Positions 55,962 through 56,969 of a stretch of DNA of 64,000 nucleotides are shown here, piece by piece. Every line of letters begins with the position of its first letter. Position 1 is the stretch's first letter. Source of the DNA: Nitrospirota bacterium (GTDB lineage: Bacteria > Nitrospirota > Leptospirillia > Leptospirillales > Leptospirillaceae); assembly GCA_021801345.1 (NCBI GenBank), contig JAJYYA010000022.1, positions 1,594-65,593 of the forward strand, written 5' to 3'. The notes under the pieces were generated by a model. The model was not told where the DNA came from, did no database searches, and was given only the letters and a program-made list of their open reading frames with translations. The translations under genes were made by a program, and so were the position numbers.

Positions 55962-56510
55962 ATGATGACTCCCTCCACTATGCCGAATCGTATCCACTTT
56001 GAATTCAAGCCTAATAAAGCACTTGAAGCGATTCTTTATATCAGCAGCAAACTTTATTCTGGGGATGCTGGATTTCACAAAATATCGAAGATCTTTTATT
56101 TTGCAGACAAAATGCATCTTCAGCGTTATGGTCGTTTGATTTGTGGCGACCATTACGTGGCGATGGAGCACGGTCCCGTTCCAAGCAATACTTACGACAT
56201 CATGAAAAAGGTGGTTGCTTACAATTCCACCCTCAAAGATTTAGATTTTGAATCATTCTCAAATGATGGAAAAAAAGTCGTCCCGTCAAGAGAAGCAAAT
56301 ATGGGACTTTTGAGCGAATCTGATATCGAATGTCTTAATGAGTCAATCGAGTTTTGTGGTGAAAAGGACTTTGATACTCTAACAATCATCAGCCATGATA
56401 AGGCTTGGGAATCTGCTGATGTCAATGATTCCATCAGCTTGGAATCCATCATCGCAACTTTGCAAGACCCAGAAATTCTCCTCGAGCACTTAATCGAAAA
56501 CGGTGCTTGA
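55962..56510 (+). CDS. Panacea/SocA (DUF4065) domain protein, antitoxin-like
   Basis: SD AGAGGAAG lies before the ATG at 55962/55965. FHKISKIFYFADKMHLQRYGRLICGDHYVAMEHGPVPSNTYD matches the DUF4065 core (KLxKLLYxAD..HL...G.P....Y.A...GPV....Y). The gene is low in GC. Confidence 0.8.
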   Translation: MMTPSTMPNRIHFEFKPNKALEAILYISSKLYSGDAGFHKISKIFYFADKMHLQRYGRLICGDHYVAMEHGPVPSNTYDIMKKVVAYNSTLKDLDFESFSNDGKKVVPSREANMGLLSESDIECLNESIEFCGEKDFDTLTIISHDKAWESADVNDSISLESIIATLQDPEILLEHLIENGA

Positions 56511-56519
56511 GAAGAAAGT

Positions 56520-56969
56520 GTGATTTGGAAAGATCTACCCGAGGATACTCGAAGGCTTCTTTTGGAAAAGCGTTTGGTCCCCGGTCGAATACTTCACGTA
56601 CATTGTTCCTTCACAAATCCGCCAAAGCATAAGTTCCTCGTATACATTTGCCATCATTCTCCCCAATGTTCCTTTTTCATCATCAACTCGGAAATCAATC
56701 AATTCAAGCAGAACAGACCGTCGTTATCTCAATGCCAAGTGAAAATCGATCAGGTCAGTCATCCTTTCCTCGACCACGACTCTTATGTTGACTGTTCGAA
56801 AGTTCAAACAATCAGTTTCAAGGATTTAAGCGATCAACTCACAAAATCCAACGATGGGTTCAAAAACATAATCAGCCTTGAGGTTAAAAAAGCTATTCTT
56901 GTTGTAGTAAAAAACACAAAGACTCTTTCGCAACAAGAAAAAATATATATTCAGAATGCATTGCAATAA
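56520..56969 (+). CDS. unassigned 149-aa protein, candidate toxin/effector partner of the Panacea gene
   Basis: GTG start 9 nt after the upstream stop, with a purine-rich GAAGAAAG before it. It shares the low GC of the upstream gene. I recognise no family, and the MazF/CcdB-like strand order is only an impression. Confidence 0.55.
   Translation: MIWKDLPEDTRRLLLEKRLVPGRILHVHCSFTNPPKHKFLVYICHHSPQCSFFIINSEINQFKQNRPSLSQCQVKIDQVSHPFLDHDSYVDCSKVQTISFKDLSDQLTKSNDGFKNIISLEVKKAILVVVKNTKTLSQQEKIYIQNALQ

Follow-up and report, generated by a model that had tools for sequence, protein, structure and literature searches.

PanA/PanT toxin-antitoxin (TA) pairs, in which the antitoxin carries a Panacea domain, were defined by Kurata et al. 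2022 (PMC8832971), who predicted 1,268 loci and grouped their toxins into 88 clusters, mostly of "hypothetical proteins". In about three quarters of these loci the antitoxin is encoded first, and PanA forms complexes with its toxins (PMC8832971). Toxin clusters T5, T6 and T8 and the Bifidobacterium ruminantium toxin have no conserved-domain match and look MazF/EndoA/PemK-like by HHpred; the Pseudomonas moraviensis (T6) and B. ruminantium pairs were validated, being toxic, rescued by PanA and inhibitory to translation (PMC8832971). Ernits et al. 2023 (PMC10440598) count MazF/PemK among the commonest folds of their network and show that a Panacea domain standing alone is able to neutralise a toxin directly. 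Here we analyse a two-gene cassette at positions 55962 to 56969 of a 64,000-nucleotide (nt) stretch of contig JAJYYA010000022.1 from a Nitrospirota bacterium (hereafter, the window). With reasonable confidence, we read the cassette as a horizontally acquired type II PanA-PanT module whose toxin has a cryptic MazF fold and probably cleaves RNA.

Gene 1 (panA; 55962 to 56510, + strand) encodes a predicted stand-alone Panacea (DUF4065) antitoxin of 181-182 amino acids (aa). It matches Pfam PF13274 (SocA_Panacea) with E 3.6e-20 and 73.4 bits (cutoff 25.7), residues 47-153 covering model positions 3-112 of 113, and matches phrog_1281 in PHROGs with E 1.4e-20. There is no extra N-terminal domain. 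The Panacea/DUF4065 assignment made in the first-pass annotation of this DNA therefore holds, and the motif quoted in its support is present verbatim. The longest open reading frame (ORF) spans 55950 to 56510 and ends in a TGA stop at 56508-56510. A Shine-Dalgarno sequence, AGAGGAAG, precedes the ATG codons at 55962 and 55965, with the better spacing for 55965, and the gene call on an identical metagenomic contig (L001) corresponds to a start at 55965. The true start is likely one of these two codons.

The Pfam domain of gene 1 is named after SocA, the antitoxin of the type VI SocA-SocB system of Caulobacter, and gene 1 also has a weak local match (E 2e-5) to the NCBIfam model NF047745 (SocA_antitoxin). 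Both would fit a SocAB-like arrangement, in which the Panacea protein acts as a proteolytic adaptor, delivering an unstable toxin to ClpXP. The NF047745 score falls far below the equivalog cutoff (24.3 against 190 bits), which rules out SocA equivalog identity, and the partner is unrelated to SocB. All PanAT pairs that Kurata et al. 2022 (PMC8832971) tested formed stable complexes, which is type II behaviour. We regard the adaptor mechanism as very improbable here and expect binding rather than ClpXP delivery.

Gene 2 (panT; 56520 to 56969, + strand) encodes the 149-aa toxin candidate, a predicted divergent SH3-like barrel of the MazF/PemK type by structural model, Foldseek, hhalign and conservation. 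It opens with a GTG at 56520, 9 nt past the gene 1 stop, and this start agrees with the N-termini of its homologues. The gap, the start codon and the length are as first annotated, and all five protein segments quoted for gene 2 recur verbatim in its translation. The 9-nt spacer, GAAGAAAGT (56511 to 56519, + strand), is purine-rich and Shine-Dalgarno-like, which suggests that translation of panA and panT is coupled within one transcript.

By sequence, gene 2 is nearly silent. It has no match in Pfam (MazF/PemK PF02452 included), in PADLOC or among PDB sequences (phmmer). The only named sequence family with any NCBIfam match is NF045891, the "Mbov_0400 family ICE element protein" of Mycoplasma integrative conjugative elements (ICEs), at 23.8 bits (cutoff 55) and E 4e-5, with residues 73-143 on profile positions 60-130. 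A further match, to PHROG 1936 ("MazF-like growth inhibitor"), is sub-threshold at E 0.08. The first annotation had placed the partner in no named family; this stands for Pfam, PADLOC and PDB sequence searches and fails for the fold, which is predicted to be that of MazF/PemK.

A word-indexed search returned 12 relatives of gene 2, and the rarity that this implied was overturned when a profile was run exhaustively against 1.84 billion cluster representatives (clusters at 50% identity). This recovered 1,771 proteins at E <= 1e-3, of which 1,087 reached E <= 1e-10. Members are almost always 140-160 aa long, and sources that give them a name use "hypothetical protein". Among 76 diverse relatives we found no consistent Pfam family, and NF045891 was touched weakly by six (6/76; best E 3e-5). 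A tblastn search against plasmids gave no match. The results below supply a predicted fold and a testable candidate active site for a large family of hypothetical proteins, one that fills 1,771 or more clusters at the 50% identity level.

The first-pass annotation had proposed a neighbourhood survey of gene 2 homologues and had described the two genes as one acquired bicistronic unit of low guanine-plus-cytosine (GC) content. The survey bears this out. In each of the 20 distinct loci examined (20/20), drawn from many phyla, a PF13274 gene has a gene 2 homologue as its immediate downstream neighbour on the same strand, so the pairing is not due to chance. The spacing between panA and panT in these loci runs from a 4-nt overlap to ~14 nt, and the remaining neighbours differ from locus to locus, comprising restriction-modification, resolvase, kinase, Mfd, prophage, integrase and housekeeping genes. 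Pairwise identities of PanA (28-99% across loci) and of its partner (22-96%) co-vary, with r 0.91 and a Mantel p of ~2e-4. This correlation indicates that the pair is inherited as a unit, with no swapping of partners inside the clade. The window's cassette also agrees with the in silico definition of a PanAT locus used by Kurata et al. 2022: the gap of 9 nt lies within the 100 nt allowed, the arrangement is conserved in 20 loci, and neighbourhood conservation suggests no operon of more than three genes. The family offers a well-sampled case for Panacea as a hub antitoxin, with a dedicated PanA clade co-diverging with one toxin family.

The pair occurs on metagenomic contigs (L001, L003, L004, L006 and L007) and in GTDB genomes of Gallionella, Gallionellaceae, Blastocatellia, a gammaproteobacterium, Labilibaculum, Bacteroidia and Vibrio; Anaerolineales are also among the taxa with a family member downstream of a PF13274 gene. 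The related-locus genome search, run from a 12-sequence alignment, used one narrow pattern and returned 10 genomes. More distant family members have the pair in candidate division WS1, in a P2-like prophage, on a TARA scaffold and in Massilia frigida, where it adjoins an integrase.

Such settings are characteristic of mobile or defence DNA. In the temperate, lambdoid Serratia phage vB_SspS_OS31, genes p23 and p24 (L098, 2408-3438) form the pair; both are annotated as hypothetical and occupy a moron position between antiterminator Q and the methylase/lysis genes. In E. coli (L106, 2459-3480, NZ_OW967003.1; L107, 1144-2180, NZ_CP029579.1) the pair sits at a prophage edge (PrtN, 3'-5' exonuclease, DUF551) beside a truncated fragment of the tRNA-dihydrouridine synthase gene dusA. 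There, PGAP calls the two products "Panacea domain-containing protein" and "hypothetical protein" (WP_139550955.1 or WP_000900143.1), and by blastn the E. coli PanA type is present in 46 of 5,426 complete E. coli genomes. Tests of toxicity, RNase specificity and anti-phage activity could conveniently use the homologues from E. coli and the Serratia phage.

Three of the loci have features of their own. On one metagenomic contig (L004, 1347-6586) the cassette lies beside an N6/N4 methyltransferase and a ResIII/RE_endonuc helicase-nuclease, resembling a type III restriction-modification system. On the TARA scaffold (L104, 3880-4458) a HEPN_AbiU2 protein is encoded beside it. The neighbours at these two loci suggest a defence-island context. 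In an uncultured Vibrio metagenome-assembled genome (L014, 2430-2943), PanA is split by a frameshift into two ORFs (87 and 76 aa), each of which matches PF13274, and the toxin homologue looks N-terminally shortened; this locus is either a decaying cassette or the product of a sequencing frameshift.

To place PanT by fold, we modelled it with AlphaFold2 from the 12-sequence alignment. The model scored a predicted local distance difference test (pLDDT) value of 93.9 and a predicted template-modelling score (pTM) of 0.88, and all five models (5/5) reached a pLDDT of at least 91. The predicted barrel comprises strands at residues 23-29, 36-46, 49-56, 73-76, 88-99 and 114-117; one helix precedes it at the N-terminus (residues 8-18), another is inserted at 100-109 and two more lie at the C-terminus. 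Against the PDB, the best Foldseek match was Staphylococcus aureus MazF (2mf2, E 5e-4), and the Mycobacterium tuberculosis MazF entry 6kyt_G (template-modelling (TM) score 0.66 on the target, root-mean-square deviation 3.7 Å) and Deinococcus radiodurans MazF (7d2n) were also among the best. CcdB entries held ranks 5-9 at E 0.09-0.19, below all MazF entries, with noise after them; AbiQ and ToxN came lower still at E ~0.5. Against BFVD, the top four matches were phage proteins, annotated "Endoribonuclease" or "PemK-like/MazF family toxin" (E 5e-5 to 3e-3, TM <= 0.70), the best of them at E 5e-5 to 2.5e-4 and TM 0.64-0.70. The top MazF/PemK matches in the two libraries had a Foldseek probability of 1.00 and target-normalised TM scores of 0.61-0.70. 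As modelled, PanT is a MazF/CcdB-type SH3-like barrel with MazF/PemK as its best match. A resemblance to MazF, Kid and CcdB had been offered at first as an impression of segment order; the structural search returned MazF/PemK at the top of both libraries, followed by CcdB.

Across 243 family members, the highly conserved positions are K38 (100%), S88 (~100%), S/T57 (99%), N56 (98%), C92 (98%) and L84 (98%), followed by G22 (95%) and K36 (91%). The window's PanT retains the family-conserved K36, K38, N56, S57, Q73, L84, H86, D87, S88 and C92, and also G22. The C-terminus of the family is not conserved.

We then compared the PanT family profile with MazF using hhalign and a 59-sequence MazF alignment, composed of 56 viral-contig MazF genes together with Kid and the MazF proteins of B. 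subtilis and E. coli; the B. subtilis EndoA/MazF sequence used is identical to PDB 4me7_A. This single planned comparison gave P 0.0012-0.0015. The register is topologically correct, setting QVKID...DHDSYVDCSKVQT on HVEID...ERDSVILLEQIRT. Its confident part places QVKID-x6-F-LDHDSYVDCSKVQT on HVEID-x5-F-ERDSVILLEQIRT and, in the next strand and helix, IKG-x-IS-x7-AV on KITHLDDEMMDKVDEAL. At a lower posterior threshold the alignment spans MazF residues 1-115, and in this extended, low-posterior form PanT G22 falls on B. subtilis MazF G6, K38 on R25, N56-S57 on T48-A49 and S88 on S73. In published MazF structures the catalytic pair is R25 with T48 in B. subtilis, corresponding to R29 and T52 in the E. 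coli protein. The conservation of K38 and N56-S/T57 in the 243 members, together with their low-confidence alignment to these MazF positions, makes an RNase active site at these residues plausible.

The barrel is shared with CcdB, and a CcdB-like toxin within the same PanA-PanT module, one that poisons DNA gyrase or another non-RNA target by protein binding, would account for the CcdB entries at Foldseek ranks 5-9, for the replacement of the canonical MazF Arg/Thr by Lys/Asn-Ser throughout the gene 2 family, and for the failure of every MazF sequence model to match that family. CcdB is likewise a small toxin of plasmid or chromosomal TA modules. Its structural match to PanT is weaker (E ~0.1 against 5e-4 for MazF), the MazF/PemK E-values being 100 to 1000 times better in two independent libraries, PDB and BFVD. 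CcdB gives no sequence signal; the sole sequence-level signal is to MazF, and the conserved polar residues fall on MazF active-site positions. The C-terminal W-G-I tail with which CcdB binds gyrase is essential to that toxin. PanT lacks such a GyrA-binding tail, in keeping with the unconserved C-terminus of its family. We judge a gyrase-type poison distinctly unlikely and retain the assignment to a MazF-fold toxin that probably cleaves RNA.

Several results weigh against that assignment. The hhalign probability for the PanT family against MazF was only 17-19%, and it fell to 2% or less against single MazF sequences or a three-sequence seed. Posterior confidence is low over the N-terminal half of the alignment, where K38 and N56 lie. 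The PanT Lys and Asn-Ser are similar, not identical, to the canonical MazF Arg and Thr, and the chemistry may differ. None of the 76 diverse family members matched PF02452 at E <= 0.1 (0/76), and the family profile recovered no MazF among PDB sequences. With all component models of PADLOC-DB 2.0 at E <= 1, neither gene 1 nor gene 2 was matched. Kurata et al. 2022 (PMC8832971) add that several predicted MazF-like or mRNase-like PanTs were non-toxic in E. coli, or that their PanA was itself toxic; in their Dataset S1, toxin and antitoxin of Chryseobacterium bovis (T5, "MazF") were both toxic, and the Flavobacterium xanthum toxin (T8, "MazF") was non-toxic in E. coli. Separately, the search of PDB sequences with the family profile returned a THO-complex match at E 0.011, which we judged spurious.

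The cassette lies in a low-GC island (55600 to 57050, ~40% GC). The GC fraction is 0.37-0.44 over ~55600-57050 and 0.60-0.65 on either side, in a genome of 61% GC, which agrees with the low GC content first noted for the pair. On the left the island is bounded by a gene for a UPF0182-like membrane protein (52838-55585, + strand, ~61% GC) and on the right by recN (57174-58826, - strand, ~61% GC). In this Nitrospirota genome the cassette marks a recent horizontal acquisition between the housekeeping genes recN and UPF0182. At the insertion edges we looked for an integrase gene and an adjoining tRNA gene and found neither; a search around the island gave no convincing flanking direct repeats, and an Rfam search of the island gave no family match. 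The window's ORF list holds no other defence genes near the cassette, whose flanks are housekeeping genes.

Repeat analysis detected two similar palindromes upstream of gene 1, through inverted repeats and direct-repeat family D16. Palindrome 1 (AAAGGA-TGACAG-TCCTTT, 55846-55863) and palindrome 2 (AAGGA-TAG-TCCTT, 55890-55902) are 40 nt apart and lie 60-115 nt 5' of gene 1. The region 55846-55902 has a fold z-score of -2.3, and palindrome 1 is in addition scored as terminator-like, a hairpin with a T-run behind it. These palindromes could be a candidate operator or promoter-region element. The PanA protein has no recognisable DNA-binding domain, despite the operator-like palindromes upstream of its gene.

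At the other end of the island, a 110-aa ORF (56984-57316, + strand) begins in the low-GC tail and overlaps recN at its 3' end in antisense orientation. This ORF corresponds to the gene call at L001 2420-2752, has no Pfam match on record and is probably spurious.

From this architecture we can sketch how a type II PanA-PanT module would operate. A single transcript would start 5' of gene 1, antitoxin first, with panA and panT coupled in translation, and the upstream palindromes are candidate operator sites for autoregulation. The stand-alone Panacea protein PanA would bind the MazF-fold PanT directly and keep it inactive. Were PanA lost or inactivated, whether through proteolysis, a phage cue or the disappearance of the element, PanT would be freed and would most likely act as a sequence-specific endoribonuclease and arrest translation, with K38 and N56-S/T57 taking the places of the MazF catalytic Arg and Thr. 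The module would probably serve its mobile DNA as an addiction or abortive-infection (anti-phage) element. We infer the toxicity of PanT, its RNase chemistry, its direct neutralisation, autoregulation at the palindromes and any defence role of the cassette from the observed gene anatomy, Panacea domain, strict synteny, co-divergence and mobile-element contexts, together with the predicted fold.

The same contexts could be read another way. Panacea has been hypothesised to sense unknown triggers (Ernits et al. 2023, PMC10440598), many family members reside in prophages or beside restriction-modification or abortive-infection (Abi) genes, and several predicted RNase-type PanTs were non-toxic in E. 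coli (Kurata et al. 2022, PMC8832971). The cassette could then be a conserved mobile-element pair other than a classical growth-arresting TA: either a phage-sensing defence pair, with Panacea as the sensor and the MazF-fold protein activated only upon infection, or a non-toxic regulatory pair. The absence of both proteins from PADLOC and the housekeeping surroundings of the window's cassette speak against this, and we think it unlikely; its defence version overlaps the type II PanA-PanT explanation and does not exclude it. Like the CcdB-like and SocAB-like alternatives, it is less well supported than that explanation.

A bolder version of the MazF-fold assignment has a modest chance of being right, namely that PanT represents a distinct, uncatalogued MazF-fold lineage with another substrate or chemistry, serving as a phage-triggered abortive-infection module with a dedicated PanA clade. 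If so, an invariant Lys/Asn-Ser set, alongside the invariant Ser88 and Cys92, would have replaced Arg/Thr and the extra helices would have been gained, and prophages of E. coli, of Serratia and of numerous environmental bacteria would carry the family as a defence module.

How, then, does the cassette compare with described systems? In common with MazF/PemK/Kid/EndoA (PF02452), PanT has a predicted SH3-like barrel and its strand order; the conserved stretches V-x-I-D ... (R/H)DS-(V/Y) ... I/V-x-T-I align, and, in a low-confidence part of the alignment, conserved basic and hydroxyl/amide residues stand at the positions of the catalytic Arg (R25/R29) and Thr (T48/T52). PanT differs from MazF in having Lys for Arg and Asn-Ser/Thr for Thr, and in its extra N-terminal, inserted and C-terminal helices. 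Its antitoxin differs as well: MazF, PemK and Kid are partnered by MazE, PemI and Kis, whereas PanT is paired with a Panacea protein and not with the AbrB fold of MazE. For NF045891 there is no described function, the gene 2 score lies far below the cutoff, and a search of a literature library for the name NF045891/Mbov_0400 found no paper; its members may be MazF-fold toxins too.

Among the PanAT clusters, T1 ("mRNase"), the largest of Kurata et al., was ruled out as the home of the PanT family: its Salmonella phage Emek member orf161 gave E 0.3 by hmmsearch and a probability of 0.2% by hhalign, and tblastn of gene 2 family members found no match in phage Emek. The Emek T1 pair, orf149/orf161 (L109, 4765-5638), has genes that overlap by 62 nt and a distantly related PanA (E 1.4e-9 to a hidden Markov model of PanA from the present loci). 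It illustrates the diversity of partners among phage-borne Panacea pairs.

The closest likeness is to the cryptic MazF-like PanATs of Kurata et al. As in those pairs, a stand-alone Panacea antitoxin ("noNTD") comes first, the intergenic distance is small (-4 to +9 nt), the toxin is a "hypothetical protein" of ~150 aa whose MazF-like fold is visible by structure or profile methods only, and the module is chromosomal or prophage-borne and patchy across phyla. In Dataset S1 (PMC8832971), the T5 example from Steroidobacter combines a 99.5% HHpred probability to MazF with a 9-nt gap; T5 representatives thus reach 99.5%, against 17-19% for the PanT family by our own profile comparison. Accessions of the gene 2 family had no match among the supplementary table rows listed for PanT clusters, and an accession search of the full text found none. 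Compared with T5, T6 and T8 by their descriptions rather than their sequences, the PanT family is either one of these clusters or a further one. The pair had been put forward as a candidate new one, and its newness is not supported: Kurata et al. 2022 (PMC8832971) had already reported cryptic MazF-like PanTs, two of them validated, and the family is large and present in E. coli. Because Panacea pairs with such toxins are on record, the Nitrospirota cassette introduces no new kind of system and no new principle; it is a new, or at least unannotated, example of a kind already described.

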